Source: Halomarina litorea (GTDB lineage Archaea; Halobacteriota; Halobacteria; Halobacteriales; Haloarculaceae). From it: DNA of 24,000 nucleotides. The stretch covers positions 1,609,655 through 1,633,654 of the forward strand of contig NZ_CP100448.1 in the NCBI RefSeq assembly GCF_024227715.1, given 5' to 3'. The stretch's first letter is position 1, and each line of letters starts with the position of its first letter. Under the pieces are notes generated by a model. That model worked only from the letters and a program-made list of their open reading frames with translations, was not told the DNA's origin and ran no database searches. Below are positions 3,395-21,796 of this stretch, piece by piece. A program made the translations under genes and the position numbers.

Positions 3395-3489
3395 TACGCG
3401 AGGTGGGCCGCCGACGCGGATACCGGTTTCCATTTCCGGGGTCCCCGCGAACCAGCAGCCTCTTTCGCCCCCACCGCCGACGGGACGGT

Positions 3490-4860
3490 ATGCGCCGGTC
3501 CAGCGCGACGCTCGCGGGACTCCTCGCCCTCGTATCCCTCGCGGGCGCGACGGGCGTGGCCCGCGCCCACGAACTCGGAGGGACCCGGTTCGAGGCCCCC
3601 ATCCCCTTGCCCCTCCTGCTCGTCGGAGCGGGGCTGACGGTGGGGGTCACCGCGGCCGTCCTCGCACGCGCGGACCGGGGGGACCGACCCCCCGCAAGCG
3701 AGGACCCGACGGACGGTGGCGAGTGGGAGCGCTCCCGCCGACTGGGGACGGTCTCACCGACGATAGGCCGCACCCTCCGGACCGTGGTGAGCGTCGGCTT
3801 CCTCGCGGTGTTCGTCGGCGTCCTGCTGGCGGGCCTGTTCGGGTCGCGGAACGCACTGGACAACCCCGCGACGCTGTTCGTCTGGGCGGTCTGGTTCCGC
3901 GGGCTGGGCCTCGTGAGCGCCCTCGCGGGCAGTCCGTGGCGCGTCCTCGCCCCGTGGCGGATCATCTATCGGGGGTTCGTCGCGCTGGAGGGGCGGACGG
4001 TCGGCCCGTTCGACTACCCGGAGCGACTGGGCCACTGGCCCGCGCTCGTGGGGTTCCTGCTCCTCCTCGGCGTCGGCGAGAACCTCACCGTCGCCCCCCG
4101 GACGGTGTCGCTGACGGTCCTCGTCGTCGTCGCGTACGCGCTGGTCATGCTCGCGGGGGCCCTGCTGTTCGGCCCGGTCTGGTTCGAGCGCGCCGACCCG
4201 CTGGACGTGCTCTACCGCCTGTTCGGGCGGGTCGCTCCTCTCAGGTTCCGACGGACCGGTAAGGGGGGCTACACCGTCCACCTCCGGGTGCCGTGGGGGT
4301 CGGGCGGGGCCGTCGCCGACGCCGCCGTCGCGGCGTTCGTCGTCGCCGCCGTCTACACCGTCAGTTTCGACGGGTTCGACGGGACGCCCGAGTACCGCAC
4401 GCTGGCGGAGTCGCTGGGCCGGGCGACGGGTCTCGGACCGCTCGTGGACCTGCCGCTGTACCTCGCGGGCCTCCTCGCCTTCGTCGGGACGTTCGCGCTG
4501 GTCGCGCGCCTCACGCGGTCCGGGCCGACCCGGGGGGCGCTGGTCGCCCTCGCGCCGACCGTCCTCCCCATCGCCGTCGCCTACGAGGTGGCGCACAACT
4601 ACCCGTACGTCCTCTCGCGGGCCGGACGGCTGGTCGAGGTGCTCGTCGGAGTCGGCGCGGACCCACTGGCGTGGCTCTCGGTCCCCGCGTTCTGGGCATC
4701 GCAGGTCGCACTCGTCGTCGCCGGCCACCTCGTCGCCGTCGTCGCGGCCCACCTCGCCCTGCGGGGGCGTCCCGCGCGGGCGGAAGTGCCGCTGACGGCC
4801 GCGATGGTCGGGTACACGGTGCTCTCGCTGTGGATCATCTCGCGACCCGTCGTCGCCTGA
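3490..4860 (+). CDS. Polytopic membrane protein of unknown function (about 10 TM segments, N-terminal signal-like sequence)
   Basis: About 456 aa from the ATG at 3490 (MRRSSATLAGLLALVSLAGATGVARA/HELGG). It has repeated hydrophobic helices, with conserved-looking polar motifs in the TM regions (YEVAHNYPY, AGHLVAVVAAH). The upstream extension to 3403 is Arg-rich and unlikely to be coding. Confidence 0.75.
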   Translation: MRRSSATLAGLLALVSLAGATGVARAHELGGTRFEAPIPLPLLLVGAGLTVGVTAAVLARADRGDRPPASEDPTDGGEWERSRRLGTVSPTIGRTLRTVVSVGFLAVFVGVLLAGLFGSRNALDNPATLFVWAVWFRGLGLVSALAGSPWRVLAPWRIIYRGFVALEGRTVGPFDYPERLGHWPALVGFLLLLGVGENLTVAPRTVSLTVLVVVAYALVMLAGALLFGPVWFERADPLDVLYRLFGRVAPLRFRRTGKGGYTVHLRVPWGSGGAVADAAVAAFVVAAVYTVSFDGFDGTPEYRTLAESLGRATGLGPLVDLPLYLAGLLAFVGTFALVARLTRSGPTRGALVALAPTVLPIAVAYEVAHNYPYVLSRAGRLVEVLVGVGADPLAWLSVPAFWASQVALVVAGHLVAVVAAHLALRGRPARAEVPLTAAMVGYTVLSLWIISRPVVA

Positions 4861-7617: not shown

Positions 7618-8166
7618 TTATCGGCGCGCGCGGAGGACGAACGTCTCGCGGCGCTCGCTGGCGTGTTCGACGGTGAACCCCGCGTCCGTGAGGGCGTCCA
7701 TCGCGTCCTGTAGCGCGTAGCGTTCGTCCGTCGGCGGCCCCTCGCCGCCCTCGCCGTTTCGGGTCCAGTCCGCGATGCCGAGGAGTGCGTCGGGTCGCAG
7801 GACGCGGGCGAGTTCCCCCAGTGCCTCGTCGCTCGCGAACTCGTGATAGGTCATCGTCGAGAACGCGCCGTCCAACTGGTCGTCGGCGAACGGGAGGTCC
7901 GCGATCTCCGCGACGACGAACTCCACGTTGTCGGGAGCGCCCTTCTCGCGGTAGTACTCGTGCATCTCGTCTTGCACGTCCACGGCGTGGACCGTCTCGG
8001 CGTAGGGGGCGACGTGGTCGGTGTAGAACCCCGTTCCGCTCCCGAGGTCGGCGACGGTACCCTGCGGGTCGAACAGGGCGAGCAGTTCGTCCACCGAGAG
8101 GTACTGGTAGCGCGTCGGGTCCTCCAGGTTGTCGGCCCGGGATGGGTCGTACGTGTGAAATCCCAC
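7618..8166 (-). CDS. Class I SAM-dependent methyltransferase
   Basis: 182 aa. Motif I is VADLGSGTGFYT, and an acidic residue after beta-2 (AVDVQDEM) is present. It appears to use a GTG start at 8166. Confidence 0.9.
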   Translation of the reverse strand: MGFHTYDPSRADNLEDPTRYQYLSVDELLALFDPQGTVADLGSGTGFYTDHVAPYAETVHAVDVQDEMHEYYREKGAPDNVEFVVAEIADLPFADDQLDGAFSTMTYHEFASDEALGELARVLRPDALLGIADWTRNGEGGEGPPTDERYALQDAMDALTDAGFTVEHASERRETFVLRARR

Positions 8167-10344: not shown

Positions 10345-11019
10345 CTACTCCTGTGGAACCTCGGCCTCTGCCCCGACGCTGATGAGGCGGGCCACCTCGG
10401 CCGGGAGGCTCTGTTCGCCCGCCGGCCCGGCGACGGTGACCATTCCGAACGGCGCGACTTCGAGTATCTCGATGGTCACGCCGGGTTCGATGCCCGACTT
10501 CCCGAGGTAGCGCAGTTCCTCGTCCGTCCGGTGGCGGACGCGCTGGACGACGACGCGGTCGCCCTCCTCGCACTCGTCCAGCCGTCGCCCCGGCACCGCC
10601 TCCGGCGCGGAGAGGTCCGCGCGGGGGATGGGGTCGCCGTGGGGGTCCACCGTCGGGTCGCCGAGCACCTCGGCGATGCGCTCCTCGAAGCGCTCGCTGA
10701 TGTGGTGTTCGAGGCGGTCGGCCTCCTCGTGGACGTCCGTCCAGTCGTAGTCCAGCGCCTCGGCCAGGTACGCCTCGATGAGCCGGTGGTGTCTGAGCAC
10801 CTCGATGGCGACCGTCTCGCCCTCGGGCGTCAACTCGACGCCACGGTACTTCTCGCGTTCGACCAAGCCGCGTTCGCCGAGTTTGTCCAGCATGCTCGTG
10901 ACCGTCGGCGAGGTGACGCCGAGGCGTTCCGCGATGGCCGACGTGGAGACTCGTTCGCCCGTCTCCTGCTGGAGGATGTAGATCGTCTTGAGGTAGTCCT
11001 CCATCACGGCGCTGAGCAT
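10345..11019 (-). CDS. Metal-dependent transcriptional regulator, DtxR/SirR/MntR family with a C-terminal FeoA/SH3-like domain
   Basis: 224 aa. It has a wHTH (STSAIAERLGVTSPTVTSMLDKL), metal-site and dimerisation region (RHHRLIEAYL, DVHEEADRLEHHIS), and a C-terminal FeoA-like segment (GDRVVVQRV...GIEPGVTIEILEV). The ATG at 11019 is preferred over the TTG at 11034. Confidence 0.9.
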   Translation of the reverse strand: MLSAVMEDYLKTIYILQQETGERVSTSAIAERLGVTSPTVTSMLDKLGERGLVEREKYRGVELTPEGETVAIEVLRHHRLIEAYLAEALDYDWTDVHEEADRLEHHISERFEERIAEVLGDPTVDPHGDPIPRADLSAPEAVPGRRLDECEEGDRVVVQRVRHRTDEELRYLGKSGIEPGVTIEILEVAPFGMVTVAGPAGEQSLPAEVARLISVGAEAEVPQE

Positions 11020-11040
11020 GTCCGAACGAAGCAAGTCGCG

Positions 11041-11050
11041 GGATAAAACG
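11041..11050 (-). promoter_or_regulatory. TATA box (minus-strand CGTTTTATCC) for the DtxR-family regulator
   Basis: Centred about 27 nt upstream of the ATG at 11019. This implies the regulator has its own promoter, separate from the upstream aglB-DUF368 pair. Confidence 0.4.
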
Positions 11051-11094
11051 GTTCCCCCTTCCCGGTTCGGGCGGGGGTCGGTGGGTCCGCGTGG

Positions 11095-12066
11095 TTACTT
11101 GACGGTCGGCGCAGGCCGCTCGTCGGGTTCGCCGTCGAGGTCGATGTCGCCGGTCACGTGGTCGATGCCGACGACGAGAGCGGCACCGACGACGGCGGCG
11201 CCGAGGATGGCGGCGCTGGTTCCCGCCGACCACGTCTCGACGTTCGTGAGCACCTGCTCCGCCGGGTAGCGCAGCGCCCCGACCATCAGTGCGACGAGGA
11301 AGGTGAGCGTCGCCTCCCGGTAGTGCCGGAGCGCGTACTTCACGGCGTGGGCGATAGAGAACAGGCCGACCATCGCCCCGAGAACGAACACGACGACGAC
11401 GGTGCCGGGTTCGATCAGCGCGCCCACGTCGGTCCCCCCGGCGACGCCGAGGAGCGTGTCGACGAACCCCGAGAGCGTCTCGGTCAGGAAGAGGTACTGC
11501 CCGAGCAACAGGAGGATGAGCGCCCCCGAGATGCCGGGCAGAATCATCGCGCAGATGGCGATGGCACCGGCGAGGCCGACGACGGGGAGGGTGTGCGGGA
11601 GCGCCCCCGACACCTCCCCCGCGAGTACGAACGCGAGGCCGAACCCCGCGATACCGGCGGCGAGGCGCGACGGCCCGTCGACCGACACCTCGTCGCGGAG
11701 GATGACGGCGCTCGCCGCGATGAGGCCGAAGAAGAACGCGAACAGGAGCGCCGGGGCCGTCTCCTCGGCGTAGTGGACCGCCCGCGAGACGGTGATGAGG
11801 GCGGTGACGATGCCGAACCCGAGCGCCATCAGGAACGGCACGTCCATCGCCACGAGTCGCTCGCGGAGGCGGGCGCGCCCGGATGCGCTGGCGACGCCGG
11901 GCAGGAGCGCGATGGCCGTCGGGTCGAGTTCCGTGATGGCCGTGATGAGTCGCTCGTAGATGCCCGTGATGAGGGCGATGGTACCCCCGGAGACGCCGGG
12001 CACGGCGTCGGCCGCACCCATGGCGATGCCCTTCAGGTAGACGCCGACGAGTTCACGTCCGGCCAT
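11095..12066 (-). CDS. DUF368 family membrane protein (PopT-type polyprenyl-phosphate transporter family)
   Basis: 323 aa. It has the hallmark N-terminal motif GIAMGAADAVPGVSGGTIALITGIYERLI and an internal repeat (ILPGISGALILLLLGQY), and is polytopic. Its ATG (12066-12064) is 1 nt from the aglB stop codon (12070-12068). Confidence 0.9.
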   Translation of the reverse strand: MAGRELVGVYLKGIAMGAADAVPGVSGGTIALITGIYERLITAITELDPTAIALLPGVASASGRARLRERLVAMDVPFLMALGFGIVTALITVSRAVHYAEETAPALLFAFFFGLIAASAVILRDEVSVDGPSRLAAGIAGFGLAFVLAGEVSGALPHTLPVVGLAGAIAICAMILPGISGALILLLLGQYLFLTETLSGFVDTLLGVAGGTDVGALIEPGTVVVVFVLGAMVGLFSIAHAVKYALRHYREATLTFLVALMVGALRYPAEQVLTNVETWSAGTSAAILGAAVVGAALVVGIDHVTGDIDLDGEPDERPAPTVK

Positions 12067-12067
12067 C

Positions 12068-15000
12068 TCAGGCCGCCCCGGCGCGGAGTGTCGACTGCGT
12101 CACCGGGCCGACGAGCGCGGACGCGTTGGCCTCGGACGCGTTCCCGGACTCGTTCGAACCGTTCCCACCGGTCGACCCGTTCGAGGCGTTCCCGCCCGCG
12201 TCGGAGCCGTTCTCCGCGGCGTCCGGCGACTCGGTGGTGTTGCCGGGGTCGGCGGGCGCGTCGGTGCCGTTCGTCCCGTTGCTGGCGTTCGCGCCGTCCG
12301 GTTCGATAACCTCGGACTGTTCGAGGGTCACCTCGATGGGGCCCTCGCGCTCGCCGACGACGTTCGCCTCGTTCACGTCGGCCGTCGCGTTGTACACCGT
12401 CGTGGTGAGGTTCTCGCTCTGCGTGGCGGCGCGGAACTCGTAGGGGCCGGCCGCGCGGACGCTCACGTTCGTGTAGCCCTCCTCGGTCCCCCACTCGTCG
12501 TACCCGGTCGTCGAGTACGGCAGAGTCATCGTGAACTGCCCCTGTGCGTCGGTCTGGGCCTGCTGGACGTAGGTGAAGTTCTGCCCCGGCCCCGGAATCC
12601 GCAGCTGCACGCGAGCCGTGACCGTCGTGTTCGCGGGGCCGGTCCCCTCGACGGTCGCTCCGTCGACGCGCTCGAAGGTCTTGACCCACTGACCGACACC
12701 GCCCGCGGTGGCGTCACTCGCGTGGACCAGCCGGTAGTGTTCGAGCGCCTCGACCTGCTCGGCGGGGATGCCGGGGAGGCCGCCGATCTGCGAGGTGGAG
12801 TCGTTCTGGACGTACTCCTCGGCCGCGGCGAGACTGTCGAAGGTCTTGTACACCTGCCCGTCGGACGGGACCGCGGCCAGCGGTTGGGTCGTCTGGCTCC
12901 CGACCGTGAACTGTCGGGTCTCCCAGTCGACGACCAGCACCTTCCCGTTGGGGAGGGTGGGGCCGGCAGCGCTCCCGTGGAATCGGTAGAGCCTGACGCG
13001 CATGCTCTCGTAGTGATCCTGACTGCGGACGAGTTGGGCAGTCCGCGGGGCCTCGGTCGTGGACCGCTGCGTGTAGATTCGGGCGCTGAGCAGGTCGGCG
13101 GAGCTGACGCCGATGGTGTCGAAACTCGCCGGCGCGGTGTACTTACCCGAGCGCGGGTCCGCGAGCTTCCAGTCGACCATCACGTAGCGGCTGGACCCGT
13201 TGTCCACGGTCATGTACTCGTTCGCCTGACTCTCGTTCTGGCCGAGCAGGAAGTTCGCCGCACGGGTCGCCCCCTGCTGGAACGGGTTGGCGTCGGGGAT
13301 GCGCTGGCCCTCGACGGTGATGAAGTGCCCGTAGTCCCACCACGCCATGACCCCGTAGGCTCCCTCGGGGTAGTCGTAGTCGTCGGTCTGTCCGAAGTTC
13401 TCGTAGTACGGCATCGCCTCGCCGTCGGGGTTGGCGTACTGGCCTTCCTTCGGCGTGTTCTCCGAGAGCCACTGCAGGCTGCCCTGCCACGCGGTGACCT
13501 CGCCGGGACCGTTGTTCTCCGCGCGTTCGACGGACTGGAGGGATATCGCGCCGGGTTCGACGCCGCCGGACTGCGGGAACAGCGGGCCGGTGACGGCCAC
13601 GAACGGGGCGAAGACGATGAGGACGATGACTGCGATGGTCATCACCTGCGAGGCGTCGAGGTCCGAGAGGCTCCCGACGGTGTCGAGGTCCGCGAGGGCG
13701 ACGACCTGTGCGACGACGTACGCCGTCAGCGCCCCCACCGGGACGGCGAGGTAGTAGCCAAAGCGGTTCTGGGTGAGCGTCGCGAGCACCATCATCGCCC
13801 CCCAGAGGACGAGCAGGAGGGCCTCACCGCGCGGGTCGTCGTCGAGCAGGTAGCGCCCGAGGAGGACGAGGCCGCCGACGACGGCCGCGAAGAACGCCAG
13901 CCCGTAGGAGCCGAAGAAGTACGAACTGGCCCGTCCGAGCGGGATGGGCTGGGCCTCGTTGACCGTCCGGACCTTCGCGTTGGCGTCCAGCCCGTAGATG
14001 CGGAGGGACTGGTCGACGAAGAACGAGAACGTGTCGGGCAGGACGACGGCGAACAGGAGCGTCCCGAGGGCGATGGCCCCGAGGATGCCCCCGACGTAGA
14101 CGGTGGTCGCGTCGTCGCGCCCCTCGACTCGCCGGGCGAGTGCGGCCATGACGGCCAGTCCGCCGGCCAGCAGGACGAACAGCGTCGGCTGGAGCAACGA
14201 GAAGTCGGTCGCGGTGAACTCGAACTTGGTGATGCGGACCGCAGAGAACACCCCCGCGACGAGGAACATGACGACGCCGACGATGGCGACGTGTTCCGGG
14301 CTGTGGCCCTTGAGGAACGTGACGATGAGGTGGGCGAGGAAGAACAGTCCGAGGACGGAGACGACGAAGATGCCGGGCGGCCACACCCAGATGTAGAGCG
14401 CGATGGCGACGCCCGCGAGGGCCGCGAAGCCGAGCGGCCGGCGGAGCGTCGAGAACTCGCGGGACGAGAGCTGTTCGAAGACGGGTTTCTCGCGCTCGGC
14501 GGCGGTGACCGCGACCATCACGCCGAGCATCGCGAGGACCTGGAAGAACACCTCCGCAATGTGGTGGTCCGACCAGCCGACCAGCCCCCGGAAGAGGAAC
14601 GCACCGGGGGTCAGCGCGAGGACGGTGACGGCGACGACGCCGCCCGCGCGGCCCCCGAAGCGCTTGGCGAGGAAGTAGGCGGGGACGGCGACGAGGGTGC
14701 CGAAGACGGCGGGGGCGAACAGGAGCGCGAACGCCGTCGCCTGCTCCTGGGGCATGACGAGACCGAGGACGAGGGCTACCGTGGCGATCAACTGGTCGAA
14801 CAGCGTCCCGAACTGCCCCGGGGCGGTCCCGTACGGGAAGAACGTCCACGGATCGAAGTTCATCGTGAACGGCCAGTTGCTCACCGTGAAACTCGTCTGG
14901 CGGAAGTGGTACCAGGCGTCGTTCCCGCTGAAGAGGATGTCGCCCCCTCTGGTGTAGTTCTCCCACGTTCTCACACGGTTCCACAACATGAAGACGAACA

Positions 15001-15100
15001 GGAGCGCGAGCAGCGGGACGTGATACCACTCGCGGGCCCGGTCGAGGAGGGCGTCCGTGTCGAACGCCAACCGGTCCTCCCGCTCCGTCGGTTGACTCAT
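12068..15100 (-). CDS. aglB: Archaeal oligosaccharyltransferase AglB (STT3 family)
   Basis: About 1010 aa. It has a multi-TM N-terminal half with an SGNDAWYHF loop motif. The catalytic WWDYG motif (VMAWWDYGHF) is encoded at 13328-13342. A large soluble C-terminal domain follows. I trimmed the start from 15127 to the ATG at 15100 (MSQPTEREDRLAFDTD) because 15125-15127 lies inside the putative TATA element. Confidence 0.95.
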   Translation of the reverse strand: MSQPTEREDRLAFDTDALLDRAREWYHVPLLALLFVFMLWNRVRTWENYTRGGDILFSGNDAWYHFRQTSFTVSNWPFTMNFDPWTFFPYGTAPGQFGTLFDQLIATVALVLGLVMPQEQATAFALLFAPAVFGTLVAVPAYFLAKRFGGRAGGVVAVTVLALTPGAFLFRGLVGWSDHHIAEVFFQVLAMLGVMVAVTAAEREKPVFEQLSSREFSTLRRPLGFAALAGVAIALYIWVWPPGIFVVSVLGLFFLAHLIVTFLKGHSPEHVAIVGVVMFLVAGVFSAVRITKFEFTATDFSLLQPTLFVLLAGGLAVMAALARRVEGRDDATTVYVGGILGAIALGTLLFAVVLPDTFSFFVDQSLRIYGLDANAKVRTVNEAQPIPLGRASSYFFGSYGLAFFAAVVGGLVLLGRYLLDDDPRGEALLLVLWGAMMVLATLTQNRFGYYLAVPVGALTAYVVAQVVALADLDTVGSLSDLDASQVMTIAVIVLIVFAPFVAVTGPLFPQSGGVEPGAISLQSVERAENNGPGEVTAWQGSLQWLSENTPKEGQYANPDGEAMPYYENFGQTDDYDYPEGAYGVMAWWDYGHFITVEGQRIPDANPFQQGATRAANFLLGQNESQANEYMTVDNGSSRYVMVDWKLADPRSGKYTAPASFDTIGVSSADLLSARIYTQRSTTEAPRTAQLVRSQDHYESMRVRLYRFHGSAAGPTLPNGKVLVVDWETRQFTVGSQTTQPLAAVPSDGQVYKTFDSLAAAEEYVQNDSTSQIGGLPGIPAEQVEALEHYRLVHASDATAGGVGQWVKTFERVDGATVEGTGPANTTVTARVQLRIPGPGQNFTYVQQAQTDAQGQFTMTLPYSTTGYDEWGTEEGYTNVSVRAAGPYEFRAATQSENLTTTVYNATADVNEANVVGEREGPIEVTLEQSEVIEPDGANASNGTNGTDAPADPGNTTESPDAAENGSDAGGNASNGSTGGNGSNESGNASEANASALVGPVTQSTLRAGAA

Positions 15101-15124
15101 TGGTGGGAGAAGCCGCAAAACGCG

Positions 15125-15135
15125 CATAAGCCTTT
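15125..15135 (-). promoter_or_regulatory. Candidate TATA-like element (minus-strand AAAGGCTTATG) for aglB
   Basis: About 28 nt upstream of the ATG at 15100 in the 120-nt divergent intergenic region. A CTTAACC element at 15193-15199 sits about 25 nt upstream of the divergent GT2 ATG at 15221. Confidence 0.3.
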
Positions 15136-15220
15136 TGACCTCGTGTCACCGGAAAAAAGCGCCCCGGGCACCGACGAGCGAAGAGAAAGCGGCTTAACCT
15201 CGGCTGTAAACTGCCGGAGT

Positions 15221-16162
15221 ATGCGCGTCTCGGTCGTCGTCTGCACTCACACCACCGACCGCTACCCGGACCTCCGCGAGGCCGTCGAGAGCGTCCTCGC
15301 GAACACCTACGAGGACCGTGAGGTGGTCGTCGTCAGCGACGGGAGCGAGGCGGTGTACGACCGGGCAGTGGCGGACTTCGGCGACCACCCGGATGTCCGC
15401 GTCCACCTCCAGCCGGAGAACCGGGGGTTGCTCGCGGTGCGAAACACCGGTGCGCGCGTCGCCGAGGGGGACGTGGTCGCGTTCCTCGACGACGACGCCA
15501 TCGCGGAGGACCGCTGGCTGGTCGAACTCGTCGCGGCCTACGACGAGGGCGACGCTCGCGCCGACGACGGCCGGGTGCTCGCGGCCGGTGGCCGGGTCGT
15601 CCCCGCGTGGGTCGCCGGCGAACCCGCCTTCCTCCCCGAGGAGTTCCACTGGCTTATCGGCGTCACCCACCGGGGGTTCGCCGACGGCCCCGGCGAGGTC
15701 CGGAACACGAACGGCTCGAACATCTCGTTTCGCGCCGACGTCTTCGAGGAACTGGGCGGGTTCGACACCGACGTCGGCGGACGGAAGGGCGACAACCACC
15801 TGCAGGGCGGCGAGACGGAACTCTGTGCCCGCCTGCGCGAGGAGTTCGGCGTCGGCGTCCAGTACAACCCCGCGGCCCGCGTGGCCCACAAGATATTCGA
15901 CTACCGCACGGACCCCCGCTGGCTCGTCGAACGGGCGTTCTGGCAGGGGTACTCGAAACGCGGGATGGAGAAGTTCGTTCCCGAGTCGACCGGCGAGGAG
16001 GAGGAGTTCCTCGGCGACCTGCTGTTGCGGTTCGTCCCGGACCGCGTGCGTGGACTCCTCCTCGGTCCCTCACTGGCCTCGTTTCTCCAGTTGGTGTTCC
16101 TGTTCGTCCTCACGGGGGCGGTGGGGGCGGGCTACCTCTACGGCATCGTCAAGTGGCGCTGA
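15221..16162 (+). CDS. GT2-family glycosyltransferase, AglG-like (dolichyl-phosphate-linked glycan elongation)
   Basis: 313 aa (MRVSVVVCTHTTDRYPDLREAVESVLANTYEDREVVVVSDGS...). It has a DxD motif (AFLDDDA) and a C-terminal TM helix (FLQLVFLFVLTGAVGAGYLYGIV). It is divergent from aglB, in the position aglG occupies in Haloferax volcanii as I recall it. It is the only real part of the 1146-aa ORF-track entry 12722..16162. Confidence 0.85.
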   Translation: MRVSVVVCTHTTDRYPDLREAVESVLANTYEDREVVVVSDGSEAVYDRAVADFGDHPDVRVHLQPENRGLLAVRNTGARVAEGDVVAFLDDDAIAEDRWLVELVAAYDEGDARADDGRVLAAGGRVVPAWVAGEPAFLPEEFHWLIGVTHRGFADGPGEVRNTNGSNISFRADVFEELGGFDTDVGGRKGDNHLQGGETELCARLREEFGVGVQYNPAARVAHKIFDYRTDPRWLVERAFWQGYSKRGMEKFVPESTGEEEEFLGDLLLRFVPDRVRGLLLGPSLASFLQLVFLFVLTGAVGAGYLYGIVKWR

Positions 16163-16171
16163 GGGGTCGGG

Positions 16172-17017
16172 TCAGTCGAGGGCCGCGGGCGCGTCGCTCT
16201 CGTACTCCCAGACTAAATCGAAGTAGCGGTTGAGCCCCGCGACGAACGCCCCGTTTTCGGTGATTGCCGCCTGTCGCATGTAGTTGGGCACGTCGTCCTC
16301 CTGAACCAGCAGGATGGCCTCGCCGGTGTCGTAGGCCATGCTCGGGTCGGCGAGCGTCCCGCGCCACGGCAGGGCGTTCGTGGAGTAGCGGATACCGACC
16401 TCGGGGTACGCCGCCCGGAGGTGGTCGACCACGTCCCGCTGGCGTTCGCGGTTCTCCGGGTCCAGCGTGTCCGGGTGGAGCAAGAGCGCCCGGAGGTCGA
16501 TGCCTCGGTCGACGGCGTCCGCGACGGCGGGTTCGACCGTCTCGAAGTACTCGAAGGCCTTCGTGAGCACGCGCACGCGCTCGTCGGCCTCGTGGTAGAT
16601 GCGCCGGGTCTCGCGCTCGCTCGGTTCGCCCACGTCGACGACGTAGAACAGTTCCTCGGCGGCGGTGATGTCCTCGCCCGCGCGCTCGAAGCGAGGGCCG
16701 AACTCCGCGAGGAACGACTCCCGTTCGGCCTCGATGTCGCCGACGAACGCCTCGTAGTCCTGCCGGCGGTTCTCCTCCGCGCGGTCGAGAATCTCCTCGG
16801 GAGGGTGTGGCTGGTAGTGCTTCGGTCGGCCGGGGATGACCTTCACGTACCCCTCGTCGGCCAGCGAGTCGAGGACGCCGTAGACGCGGGCCTTCGGGAT
16901 GCCCGCCGCCTCGGCGAGGGTGGGTGCGGTCGTGCGACCGAGCGAGAGCAGTTCGGTGAGGGCCGTCCGCTCGTACTCGGTGAGACCGAGTCGCTCGAAC
17001 ACGTCCGTCTCGCTCAT
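16172..17017 (-). CDS. TrmB-family transcriptional regulator
   Basis: 281 aa. It has the N-terminal TrmB wHTH (FERLGLTEYERTALTELLSLGRTTAPTLAEAAGIPKARVYGVLDSLADEGYV) and a C-terminal TrmB-type effector domain region. It is convergent with the GT2 gene, with a 9-nt gap. Confidence 0.9.
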   Translation of the reverse strand: MSETDVFERLGLTEYERTALTELLSLGRTTAPTLAEAAGIPKARVYGVLDSLADEGYVKVIPGRPKHYQPHPPEEILDRAEENRRQDYEAFVGDIEAERESFLAEFGPRFERAGEDITAAEELFYVVDVGEPSERETRRIYHEADERVRVLTKAFEYFETVEPAVADAVDRGIDLRALLLHPDTLDPENRERQRDVVDHLRAAYPEVGIRYSTNALPWRGTLADPSMAYDTGEAILLVQEDDVPNYMRQAAITENGAFVAGLNRYFDLVWEYESDAPAALD

Positions 17018-17374: not shown

Positions 17375-18364
17375 ATGACCGACTCCGAGGTGTGCGTCCT
17401 CGTCCCCACGCTCGACGAAGCCGAGACCATCGGCGAGGTGCTCGACGGCTTTCGCGAGCGAGGGTTCGACGACCTCCTCGTCGTCGACGGCGGTTCGACC
17501 GACGGCACCCGCGACGTCGCCGAGGACCACGGCGCGCGGGTCGTCGTCCAGTCGGGCCGGGGGAAGGGACAGGCCATCCGCGAGGCGCTCACCTACATCG
17601 ACGCCCCGTACGTGCTGATGCTCGACGGGGACGCGACCTACGACCCCGCGGACGCCCAGCGGATGCTCGAACCCCTCTACGAGGGACGGGCGGAACACGT
17701 CATCGGCGACCGCTTCGCCGACATGCACGAGGACGCGATGCCGCGGCTCAACATGTTCGGAAACCGCCTCATCAACGGCGCGTTCTCGACCATCCACGGG
17801 CGCGACCTCGGGGACATCCTCAGCGGCTACCGCGCGTTCACCCGGGAGTCCGTCGAGCGCTTCGAACTCGAATCGGACGGCTTCACCATCGAGACGGAGA
17901 TGGCCGTCGAGTGCGTCAAACACCGGGTCCCGACCGCGGTCGTCCCCGTGAGCTACCACCCGCGGCCCGACGAGTCCGACACGAACCTCCACCCCGTCAA
18001 GGACGGCGGACGCATCATCGTCTCGCTGTACAGCCTCGCGAAGACGAACAACCCCCTGTTCTACTTCGGGAGCGTCGGCCTCGCCAGCGCACTCGTCGGC
18101 GGACTGGTCGCCGCGTGGGTCGGCTACGAGTACCTCTTCCGTGGTATCTCCCACGAGGCGTTCGCGGTGGTCGCCGCCGCGGGCATCCTCCTCGGCGCGC
18201 AACTGCTGATGTTCGCGGTGCTCTCGGACATGATCGTCGCCGTGAACCGCGAACAGACCCGCAGACTGGAGGAGATGAGCGACCGACTCGCGCGGACACA
18301 GGGCGGCCGCGGGACGGCCCGCGCGTCCCACTCCGACCCCGAACCGCTCCACGCCGAGGACTGA
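17375..18364 (+). CDS. aglJ: Dolichyl-phosphate hexosyltransferase-type GT2 (AglJ / DPM1-like)
   Basis: 329 aa. It has a GT2 catalytic domain (CVLVPTLDEAETIGEVLDGFRERGFDDLLVVDGGSTDGT, DxD as MLDGDATYD). C-terminal TM helices follow (FYFGSVGLASALVGGLVAAWVGY, AVVAAAGILLGAQLLMFAVL). The symbol is assigned by family resemblance and locus context only. Confidence 0.8.
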   Translation: MTDSEVCVLVPTLDEAETIGEVLDGFRERGFDDLLVVDGGSTDGTRDVAEDHGARVVVQSGRGKGQAIREALTYIDAPYVLMLDGDATYDPADAQRMLEPLYEGRAEHVIGDRFADMHEDAMPRLNMFGNRLINGAFSTIHGRDLGDILSGYRAFTRESVERFELESDGFTIETEMAVECVKHRVPTAVVPVSYHPRPDESDTNLHPVKDGGRIIVSLYSLAKTNNPLFYFGSVGLASALVGGLVAAWVGYEYLFRGISHEAFAVVAAAGILLGAQLLMFAVLSDMIVAVNREQTRRLEEMSDRLARTQGGRGTARASHSDPEPLHAED

Positions 18365-19693: not shown

Positions 19694-21796
19694 TCAAAGG
19701 TCGTCCAGCGACAGTTCCTCACTCCAGTGGAGGTCACCGTCGACGTACACCGGCGTCGGCCCGAGGCGTAACAACGCCGAGAGGTCCTCCTTCTCGACTG
19801 CGAACTCCCGGCTGACGTTCCCCGCGAGGAAGTTCCGGCCCACCCCGCGGAGCGCTGGCGTCGCGGTGGTGCCAAGCCCACAGAGGCGCGTCGGGTACGC
19901 TCTGAAGCGGACGGTGTAGCGCTCGCCGTCCGGTTCGACGTAGAGGATGAACGGGGTGATGGTCTCGGCCTGCGCCACCTCCACGTTCCCGTCGCCCACC
20001 ACGAGGTACTGCCCGCCGACGACGCTCTCCTTGCTCGCGATGTTGAGCGCCGCCTGCACCGGGAACCCGCCGTTGAGCAGGCGGGCCATCGTCATCCCCA
20101 CCGTCGTCGCCCCGGCGTTGATGACCTCGTCGAAGGTGCTGACGCCGCCGATGGCGCCCCCCTCGACGAGCGCCATCCCCTGCTCGTAGGAGCGACAGGC
20201 GTTCAGGAAGAACACGTCCACCCCCACCCGGTCGAGCGTCCGGGCGTCGAGATGACCGTCGGGACAGCGCAGTCCCTCGTCGTCGATGTGGCCGATGTAG
20301 TGCAGGAAGTCGACGTCGGACTCGAGGACGAGTCTGAGGCGGTCCGTCGAGAGGTTCCGGTAGAACGTCACGTCGAACGGGAGTTCGTCGCGCGACCCGT
20401 AGACGTCGCGTGCCGTCTCCTGCTCGGTCAGCATCTCGGGGTCGTTACAGACGACGGCGATTCCGAAGTCCGCCATCGTCGGCTCCTGGTCCAGCCGGTT
20501 GCGGTAGGCCTTCACCGTCACCTTGCTCGCCCCGACGGGGGCGTCCGCCCCGGCCCACGCCTGTTCGAGCGAGTCGACCGGCTCGGGTCGCACCAGCCGC
20601 GGCGGACACCCCGCCGTCCCGCACGACTGGTCCGGGTGCGACCCGCGCGTGTCGCGCATGAACGTCTCGATGGCCGCCGACTGCGCCTGCGCGGGCGTCA
20701 GCTCCTCGCCACGCGGCGTGCGAATCACCGCGAGGTCGTCGACGAGGAAGGGGAGCGTCTCGACGCGATCCGGCGTCGGTTCGACGTGTCCCGTCAGCTT
20801 CCACGTCGGCATGTGGGGTTCGAGCGCCTCGAACGGAGCCGTGAGGTACGTCGCGAGCTGTTCGGTCAGCGACTGGTCGTACGTCTCCGCGAGGTCGAAC
20901 GGGAGGACCCCCGCGTCCTCGACGGCCCGTCGCTCGTAGAGGTCGACCGGGTAGTACCCCTCCGTGCGGACCAGACAGTCGAGGAAGAACACCTGTTTCA
21001 GCGTCCGTTCGACCACCGTCTCGAACCCCTCCGGGCCGTCGAGCGGGTGGACGAACCCCCGGTCCGTGACCACGCGGGGGCTGTCGCCAGGGACGACGTC
21101 CGCCCCGAGGTAGTACGCGAGCGGGGCGACGACGAACGCGGACTCGACCGAGGGCGGCACCTCGATGGTCACGCCGTTCTCGGGGCGTTCGAGCCCCGCC
21201 GGGACGTGGAACGCCTCGCCGAGTTCGATGGCGGGCGGGTGCCCGCGCAGGGTGGGGTACGAGCGCTCCGGGCTGACCGTCTTCAGCGCCGACCCGAGGT
21301 ACGAGACGGCCCGGAGCAGGTCCTCGGGGTCCTCGGTCGTCGTGATGGTCGCGGCGGGCCGGTCGTGGTACGAGCGCGCCCCCGCGAACACCGTGGGGTC
21401 GCCCTCGAGGTCCACGGAGACCGTAGTCGCGTCGGAGGTCACCCGGAGTGGTCCCTCGACGCGGAGGTAGAGCTTGATGGGCGCGCTGAACTCGACGGTG
21501 TAGACGCCCTCCGGGAAGCGCTGTTCCTCGAAGTGGCCGATCTCCCTGACGAGGGTGCCGTCGGCGTCGCGGACGTAGGTGTCGACGAGTTGCGGGAAGA
21601 CGAGGCCGTCGGTCTCCACGACTACGGCGGTGTCGACGGGGACGACGAACGGACTGCCGTCGACGACGCGCGCCGTCACTTCCGATTCGGTGTGGAGGTC
21701 ACAGCGCCGTCGCTCGATGCGGTCGGTGACGCGGAGTCCCCCACCACCGGGGAGGGTGTCGATTTCGACGAAGGTCACGTGCGTCGACCCTCCCAC
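19694..21796 (-). CDS. Large orphan protein: about 440-aa N-terminal region of unknown fold plus a C-terminal CHAT/caspase-like Cys-protease domain
   Basis: 700 aa, acidic, high GC3. Residues about 443-602 follow the CHAT pattern: IAVVCN strand, DFLHYIGH(503)IDDEG, VFFLNAC(534)RSYEQG, LVEGGAIGGVSTFDEVIN...ARLLNGGFPVQAALNIA. The H503 codon is at 20288-20290 and the C534 codon is at 20195-20197. It uses a GTG start at 21796 (alternative GTG at 21777), and there is no nearby ATG. Confidence 0.8.
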   Translation of the reverse strand: MGGSTHVTFVEIDTLPGGGGLRVTDRIERRRCDLHTESEVTARVVDGSPFVVPVDTAVVVETDGLVFPQLVDTYVRDADGTLVREIGHFEEQRFPEGVYTVEFSAPIKLYLRVEGPLRVTSDATTVSVDLEGDPTVFAGARSYHDRPAATITTTEDPEDLLRAVSYLGSALKTVSPERSYPTLRGHPPAIELGEAFHVPAGLERPENGVTIEVPPSVESAFVVAPLAYYLGADVVPGDSPRVVTDRGFVHPLDGPEGFETVVERTLKQVFFLDCLVRTEGYYPVDLYERRAVEDAGVLPFDLAETYDQSLTEQLATYLTAPFEALEPHMPTWKLTGHVEPTPDRVETLPFLVDDLAVIRTPRGEELTPAQAQSAAIETFMRDTRGSHPDQSCGTAGCPPRLVRPEPVDSLEQAWAGADAPVGASKVTVKAYRNRLDQEPTMADFGIAVVCNDPEMLTEQETARDVYGSRDELPFDVTFYRNLSTDRLRLVLESDVDFLHYIGHIDDEGLRCPDGHLDARTLDRVGVDVFFLNACRSYEQGMALVEGGAIGGVSTFDEVINAGATTVGMTMARLLNGGFPVQAALNIASKESVVGGQYLVVGDGNVEVAQAETITPFILYVEPDGERYTVRFRAYPTRLCGLGTTATPALRGVGRNFLAGNVSREFAVEKEDLSALLRLGPTPVYVDGDLHWSEELSLDDL

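Follow-up and report, generated by a model that had tools for sequence, protein, structure and literature searches.

DUF368 genes of archaea have been connected to protein N-glycosylation before. Roney and Rudner (bioRxiv 10.1101/2022.02.03.479048; later Nature 613:729, 2023) reported that 37% of the archaeal duf368 genes reside in N-glycosylation clusters, often beside aglB, the gene of the archaeal oligosaccharyltransferase, and proposed that the lipid carrier dolichyl phosphate (Dol-P) is recycled by a PopT-mediated step; the synteny and the cluster of Haloferax volcanii are shown in Fig. 3B and S13 of the preprint. Undecaprenyl phosphate (C55-P) translocase function has been shown by others for the bacterial DUF368 proteins (bioRxiv 10.1101/2022.02.03.479048). 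Furthermore, Sit et al. (PMC9876793) found that HVO_RS12060 of H. volcanii, presumably the aglB-linked DUF368 gene of this organism, partially rescued a delta-vca0040 mutant of Vibrio cholerae, and that DUF368 is overrepresented in halophiles, Halobacteria among them, with a contribution that depends on sodium and pH. Here we describe the corresponding gene pair in a 24,000-nt stretch of the genome of Halomarina litorea (contig NZ_CP100448.1, positions 1,609,655 to 1,633,654; referred to below as the window and numbered from its first nucleotide), in which the aglB stop codon and the start codon of a DUF368 gene are separated by one nucleotide. An initial inspection of the window (the original prediction) had presented this pair as a novel module for coupled transfer and recycling of Dol-P. 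The biology of that proposal, a tight same-strand pair with a translocase homologue and a conserved pairing, is sound; its novelty is not, as synteny and Dol-P hypothesis were both published in 2022-23 (bioRxiv 10.1101/2022.02.03.479048). The window is a real but ordinary instance of the published synteny, and the whole proposal is already that of Roney and Rudner. The sole small addition made here is that a coupling-type junction between aglB and duf368 is widespread, which suggests selection for co-expression.

Both genes are encoded on the minus strand. The aglB reading frame (12068..15127; probable start ATG 15100, stop TGA 12070-12068) comprises 1019 amino acids when counted from its first ATG at 15127, and the DUF368 gene (11095..12066; 323 amino acids) starts with the ATG at 12066-12064, leaving the G at 12067 as the only spacer. 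Read directly on the minus strand, the junction (12064..12070) has the sequence ...GCC GGG GCG GCC TGA g ATG GCC GGA CGT..., exactly at the coordinates that had been predicted. No in-frame start codon is present upstream of the ATG at 12066, which makes this the first possible start in the frame, and the alignments with DUF368 homologues begin at residue 1. Within a sequence of 69% GC, both open reading frames (ORFs) have a GC content at third codon positions (GC3) of 0.92-0.93 and the pattern of GC over the codon positions that marks real genes.

The role of the WWDYG motif and of the acidic motif in the first loop has been established from AglB and PglB structures. In the protein encoded in the window WWDYG is found at residues 596-600, and the acidic first-loop motif was also scored as present. 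The Pfam models STT3, AglB_core-like and AglB_L1 (PF02516, PF22627 and PF18079) all match above their cut-offs, and the NCBIfam model TIGR04154 (archaeo_STT3) does so with 808.7 bits against a cut-off of 450. The protein shares 43% identity with H. volcanii AglB over around 1000 amino acids, and the block FSGNDAWYH is identical in the two. Its C-terminal tail (window 12068-12335, residues 931-1019) is acidic and of low complexity, and these final 89 residues hold 11 of the 20 N-X-S/T sequons of the whole protein; among 14 haloarchaeal homologues the last 100 residues contain 0-7 sequons. AglB may heavily glycosylate its own extracellular tail.

Two ATG codons compete as the start of aglB. In H. 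salina, the annotated orthologue starts at the ATG equivalent to 15100, the second ATG of the ORF, which is also the end coordinate of the gene in the original prediction. The first ATG is located within a 20-nt block, GAGGTCAAAAGGCTTATGCG (window 15122-15141; L083 1430-1449), that is nucleotide-identical in H. litorea and H. salina. Past this block the 'codons' of the two species diverge, and so does the surrounding sequence. Because this is the pattern expected of a promoter element, and given the H. salina annotation, the ATG at 15127 was set aside and 15100 is probably the true start. The block is then likely a TATA-like element with a transcription factor B recognition element (TATA/BRE-like) that directs a leaderless aglB mRNA, and the ATG inside it makes the ORF appear 9 codons longer.

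As a scan for sigma-70 promoters and intrinsic terminators is unsuited to archaea, AT-rich hexamers, in which A or T make up five or more of the six positions, were scanned instead over 6.1 kb around the locus. The sigma-70 scan gave no promoter matches, and its one intergenic terminator-like match, at 15172-15158 (minus strand) lies upstream of aglB, where there is no gene to terminate, and was read as part of a T-rich promoter region. AT-rich hexamers proved to be rare, with 10 clusters in the 6.1 kb, three of which are located in the divergent intergenic region between aglB and aglG (15101..15220). This region holds the only AT-rich elements near aglB and is its putative promoter region. 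On the minus strand the elements include TTTTTT at 15158-15153 and TCAAAAGGCTTAT at 15137-15125, and a CTTAT occurs at -30 to -26 relative to the ATG at 15100, the position at which the TATA box of a leaderless haloarchaeal mRNA would be expected. At the other end, just 3' of the DUF368 stop codon and before a gene for a SirR/DtxR-type regulator, the minus strand carries a GC-rich hairpin, CCCCC G CCCG-AAC-CGGG AA GGGGG (11077-11054), followed by TTTTAT (11048-11043; together 11043..11077), which could mark where a two-gene transcript ends, serve the following gene as its TATA box, or both. In between, no AT-rich hexamer cluster is present from 11543 to 13073, so that nothing TATA-like is found within 1 kb upstream of the ATG at 12066. 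The original prediction, which had seen no promoter-like element between the two genes, is in agreement with this. The layout of these signals fits a two-gene aglB-duf368 transcript. Considering the shared strand, the tight abutment and the lack of anything TATA-like close by, co-transcription of the two genes is likely and translational coupling possible.

It might be argued that the DUF368 gene is expressed independently, from an internal promoter in the 3' part of aglB, and that adjacency does not equal co-regulation. Promoters inside coding regions are frequent in haloarchaea, and at five of the 22 loci with a direct pair that are described below, a gap of 19-103 nt would provide room for one. 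In the window, however, the 1-nt spacer is too small to hold an intergenic promoter, the kilobase upstream of the DUF368 start lacks any AT-rich hexamer, and the final 133 nt of aglB have a GC content of 74%. We therefore regard independent expression as very unlikely and prefer a common transcript.

The conservation of the adjacency was assessed with a profile search of genome contigs, using an alignment of 13 haloarchaeal DUF368 proteins, which recovered 80 loci, 23 of them haloarchaeal; the upstream aglB was located by tblastn with the AglB of the window. In this survey aglB was positioned directly upstream on the same strand at 18 of the 23 haloarchaeal loci, with stop-to-start gaps of -4, -1, -1, -1, -1, 0, 0, 0, 0, 5, 6, 6, 11, 19 or 31, 28, 42, 74 and 103 nt. 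Taking all 28 haloarchaeal loci examined, including the window, the direct pair was present at 22, which disposes of the concern, raised with the original prediction, that the adjacency could be unique to one genome. The gap was at most 1 nt in 13 of these 22 pairs, often in the form of a TGATG or GTGA overlap, and at most 11 nt in 17; the overlaps of 1 or 4 nt include those in three named genomes examined in addition to the survey, H. salina (with TGATG), Halococcus qingdaonensis and Halobacterium sp. R2-5. The flanks vary by genus, and the pair persists: on its upstream side stands a glycosyltransferase of family 1 (GT1) or family 2 (GT2), on its downstream side SirR, DUF8048 or an unknown gene. 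As the flanking genes differ, the pair has been retained while its surroundings turned over, and since it is seen at 22 of 28 loci despite these differences, the adjacency is far beyond chance.

A few loci depart from this arrangement. In H. volcanii, aglM is inserted on the opposite strand between aglB and duf368. In Halobellus an aglM-like gene is found upstream of the DUF368 gene and aglB is not found within 7 kb. Similarly, no aglB was found within 7 kb at two loci of Natrialbales, one of Halonotius and one of a metagenome-assembled genome (MAG), and the neighbours that were checked, those at the Natrialbales loci and in the MAG, are unrelated to glycosylation. Beyond the haloarchaea, an STT3 gene lies 2 kb upstream of DUF368 on the same strand in a Thermoplasmata MAG, and three methanogen DUF368 loci lack aglB within their flanks, one of them adjoining a sugar epimerase. 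In one contig (L014, CAZENJ010000103.1), binned as 'uncultured Thermotogae bacterium', the 3' end of a haloarchaeal-type aglB overlaps, in a TGATG, a DUF368 gene with 47% identity to the query; this contig is probably haloarchaeal and mis-binned.

These data also bear on the idea that DUF368 has a housekeeping role, in which it would keep every envelope pathway supplied with polyprenyl phosphate at high salt, and would owe its place beside aglB to an inherited gene order without specific functional coupling. In haloarchaeal genomes, neighbouring genes on one strand commonly have short overlaps, and several DUF368 genes of haloarchaea and methanogens are found in unrelated contexts, which speaks for this idea, as do the enrichment in halophiles and the dependence on sodium and pH reported by Sit et al. 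(PMC9876793). It is, however, difficult to reconcile with a pair that is kept across at least eight genera while the flanks turn over, and with a gap of at most 1 nt in 13 of the 22 pairs, which would be hard to keep without selection for co-expression. On balance we consider a general role of this kind unlikely.

The assignment of the second protein to the PopT family, already made in the original prediction, is borne out by a match to PF04018 (VCA0040-like; E 1.7e-62, 211.6 bits, gathering score 26) that covers profile positions 1-235 of 246; the protein is clearly homologous to the polyprenyl-phosphate translocases of bacteria. It is 100% identical to the annotated DUF368 protein of Halomarina litorea, 60% identical to that of H. 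volcanii and 37-38% identical to Vibrionaceae DUF368 proteins (L034, L056, L075). The match to NF052564 ('polyprenyl-phosphate transporter') has an E value of 2e-57. Yet the scores on the two bacterial equivalog models, 84.1 bits for NF052563 (PopT) and 194.8 bits for NF052564 (the V. cholerae type), remain below their cut-offs of 400. Because of these scores the protein is best treated as a member of a distinct archaeal subfamily that is homologous to the bacterial transporters. The AlphaFold2 (AF2) model is all-helical and polytopic, with 15 helices, a mean predicted local distance difference test score (pLDDT) of 80 and a predicted template modelling score (pTM) of 0.72. When the two halves of the protein were aligned to look for a two-fold inverted repeat, the motifs PGVSGG (residues 23-28) and PGISGA (177-182) were the sole likeness, and the BLAST comparison was not significant. 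Neither a sequence search of the PDB nor a Foldseek search with the AF2 model identified a significant relative, the best matches being ZIP transporters and BacA with E values above 0.3.

Neither the substrate nor the direction of transport follows from the synteny with aglB by itself. DUF368 could also act in the glycosylation pathway without returning Dol-P, for instance by flipping the Dol-P-linked glycan outward or by moving some other polyprenyl-linked lipid or phospholipid required by AglB. In favour of this, the outward flippase of haloarchaea has been assigned only tentatively, Agl29 being called a 'flippase or flippase-related protein' (PMC12624080), and the scores are below the bacterial equivalog cut-offs. 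The bacterial members, on the other hand, raise or lower the amount of surface-exposed free C55-P and not that of lipid-linked glycans (bioRxiv 10.1101/2022.02.03.479048; PMC12826051), and the H. volcanii orthologue can partially replace the C55-P translocase of V. cholerae (PMC9876793). A role other than the return of Dol-P thus seems rather improbable to us.

Return of Dol-P by the DUF368 protein is the reading that we favour. More explicitly, the conserved haloarchaeal aglB-duf368 pair, here contained in a small agl cluster (aglJ, a trmB-like regulator, aglG, aglB and duf368), probably acts as a Dol-P transfer and recycling module. A single mRNA for aglB and duf368 would most likely be made from the promoter in the divergent region between aglB and aglG, and translation of the DUF368 cistron would probably come about through termination-reinitiation, by ribosomes that have reached the aglB stop codon 1 nt upstream. 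AglB would move the Dol-P-linked glycan onto asparagine at the outer face and free Dol-P there, the DUF368 protein would most likely return the Dol-P to the cytoplasmic face, and AglJ would recharge it at that side of the membrane. Several points weigh against this reading. In the literature searched, neither a deletion phenotype nor a direct test of DUF368 in any archaeon was found, and promoter and terminator were assigned here by inspection of the sequence. The sampled loci are the best-scoring relatives of the query, a set biased toward aglB-linked orthologues that is not an unbiased census, and even within it the linkage is not obligatory, as DUF368 is located away from aglB at five of the 28 haloarchaeal loci and at the methanogen loci. 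Finally, with scores below the cut-offs of both bacterial models, the same substrate and direction of transport are not guaranteed.

The original prediction stated that no Dol-P re-translocase had been demonstrated by experiment in archaea, and judged by the literature searched this still seems to hold; recent papers on N-glycosylation in Halobacterium let the cluster end with AglB and make no mention of recycling or of DUF368. The complementation of bacterial mutants that the original prediction had suggested has been accomplished in part by others, namely with H. volcanii HVO_RS12060 in V. cholerae delta-vca0040 (PMC9876793). The linkage of aglB and duf368 is the best genomic clue to how Dol-P gets back to the cytoplasmic face, a recognised gap in the picture of N-glycosylation in archaea and, by analogy, in eukaryotes, and the window adds an example from another genus. 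Species with the direct operon, like Halobacterium, would be slightly cleaner than H. volcanii for a test by polar or non-polar deletion.

A stronger version of the same idea would be that the abutment of stop and start codon reflects selection for stoichiometric co-production, and that AglB and DUF368 form a membrane complex in which the released Dol-P is passed straight to the translocase. If true, the two would constitute a transfer-and-recycle machine and not two independent enzymes. Fusions of AglB and DUF368 were sought as evidence of such a physical association; the DUF368 family comprises 5018 representatives at 50% identity (E at most 1e-3), and no fusion was present among the best 120 matches or the best 150 of the representatives at 50% identity, the longest of which measured 479 amino acids. 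We consider a complex of this kind doubtful.

The surrounding genes place the pair in a cluster of the Haloferax type. Divergent from aglB lies an aglG-like GT2 gene (15221..16162, plus strand; reading frame taken from the GC3 phase), a glucosyl-dolichyl phosphate glucuronosyltransferase that scores 463.1 bits on the AglG equivalog NF041394 (cut-off 440) and shares 52% identity with the GT2 that is divergent from aglB in H. volcanii. An aglJ-like GT2 gene (17375..18364, plus strand), predicted to load Dol-P with the first hexose, scores 441.5 bits on TIGR04182 (AglJ; cut-off 325). Hence the equivalogs for the charging of Dol-P and for extension are both found near aglB, and with AglJ and AglG in one cluster the locus would both consume and release Dol-P. 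On its gene content the cluster is predicted to encode Dol-P loading (AglJ), extension (AglG), release at the outside (AglB) and a candidate recycler (DUF368), and we take the window to correspond, in H. litorea, to the core of the agl cluster known from H. volcanii. Between aglG and aglJ, a gene for a TrmB-family transcriptional regulator is located (16172..17017, minus strand; PF01978, E 6e-19), and this sugar-type regulator could control the agl genes locally.

Downstream of the DUF368 gene, the SirR/DtxR-family metal-dependent regulator is encoded at 10345..11034 (minus strand; start TTG 11034 or ATG 11019), with the domains Fe_dep_repress, Fe_dep_repr_C and FeoA. The same neighbour occurs in H. 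salina and not in Halococcus or Halobacterium, and the gene is not part of the module. A few genes further downstream of DUF368, a small class-I S-adenosylmethionine (SAM) methyltransferase is encoded (window 7618-8166, minus strand) that shares 63% identity with its Haloferax volcanii counterpart. Such a gene recurs downstream of DUF368 in Halomarina, Haloferax (L081 9398-9952) and Halobellus (L017 8420-9013), and may belong to the conserved neighbourhood as well.

Elsewhere in the window, an ORF of 700 amino acids (19694-21796, minus strand) is gene-like by its GC3 of 0.92 and has no match in Pfam or NCBIfam at E values up to 5; it contains a His/Cys pattern, HYIGH...FLNACRS, that is reminiscent of CHAT or caspase-like proteases. 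Another ORF (3403-4860, plus strand) encodes a predicted polytopic membrane protein of 485 amino acids with a signal-like N-terminus and many hydrophobic segments that could not be assigned to a family. Scans of the window for tRNAs and Rfam families yielded no matches.

Compared with the archaeal duf368-aglB synteny described by Roney and Rudner, the window has the same two families in the same order and orientation, and the functional hypothesis, recycling of Dol-P after AglB, is the same; the detail of direct abutment is not mentioned in the parts of the preprint text that were available. The agl cluster of H. volcanii resembles that of the window in its AglJ and AglG equivalogs, in the similarity of AglB (43%), DUF368 (60%) and the downstream methyltransferase (63%), and in the divergent orientation of aglG and aglB. 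It differs by the opposite-strand aglM between the two genes, whereas these abut directly, at -4 to +11 nt, in the window and in most haloarchaea sampled. With PopT of Staphylococcus aureus (SAOUHSC_00846) and VCA0040 of V. cholerae the protein shares PF04018, a polytopic all-helical predicted fold and the duplicated PG[VI]SG motif. Unlike in these bacterial systems, the carrier would be the alpha-saturated dolichyl phosphate instead of C55-P, the genomic partner is an oligosaccharyltransferase and not a set of cell-wall genes, and the protein scores below the equivalog cut-offs. A more distant parallel is provided by the bacterial DedA/UptA transporters that are fused or adjacent to PAP2/UppP phosphatases: although the transporter family is unrelated and the partner enzymes are different, there too the gene for an enzyme that releases the carrier outside is linked to that for the transporter which brings the carrier back.

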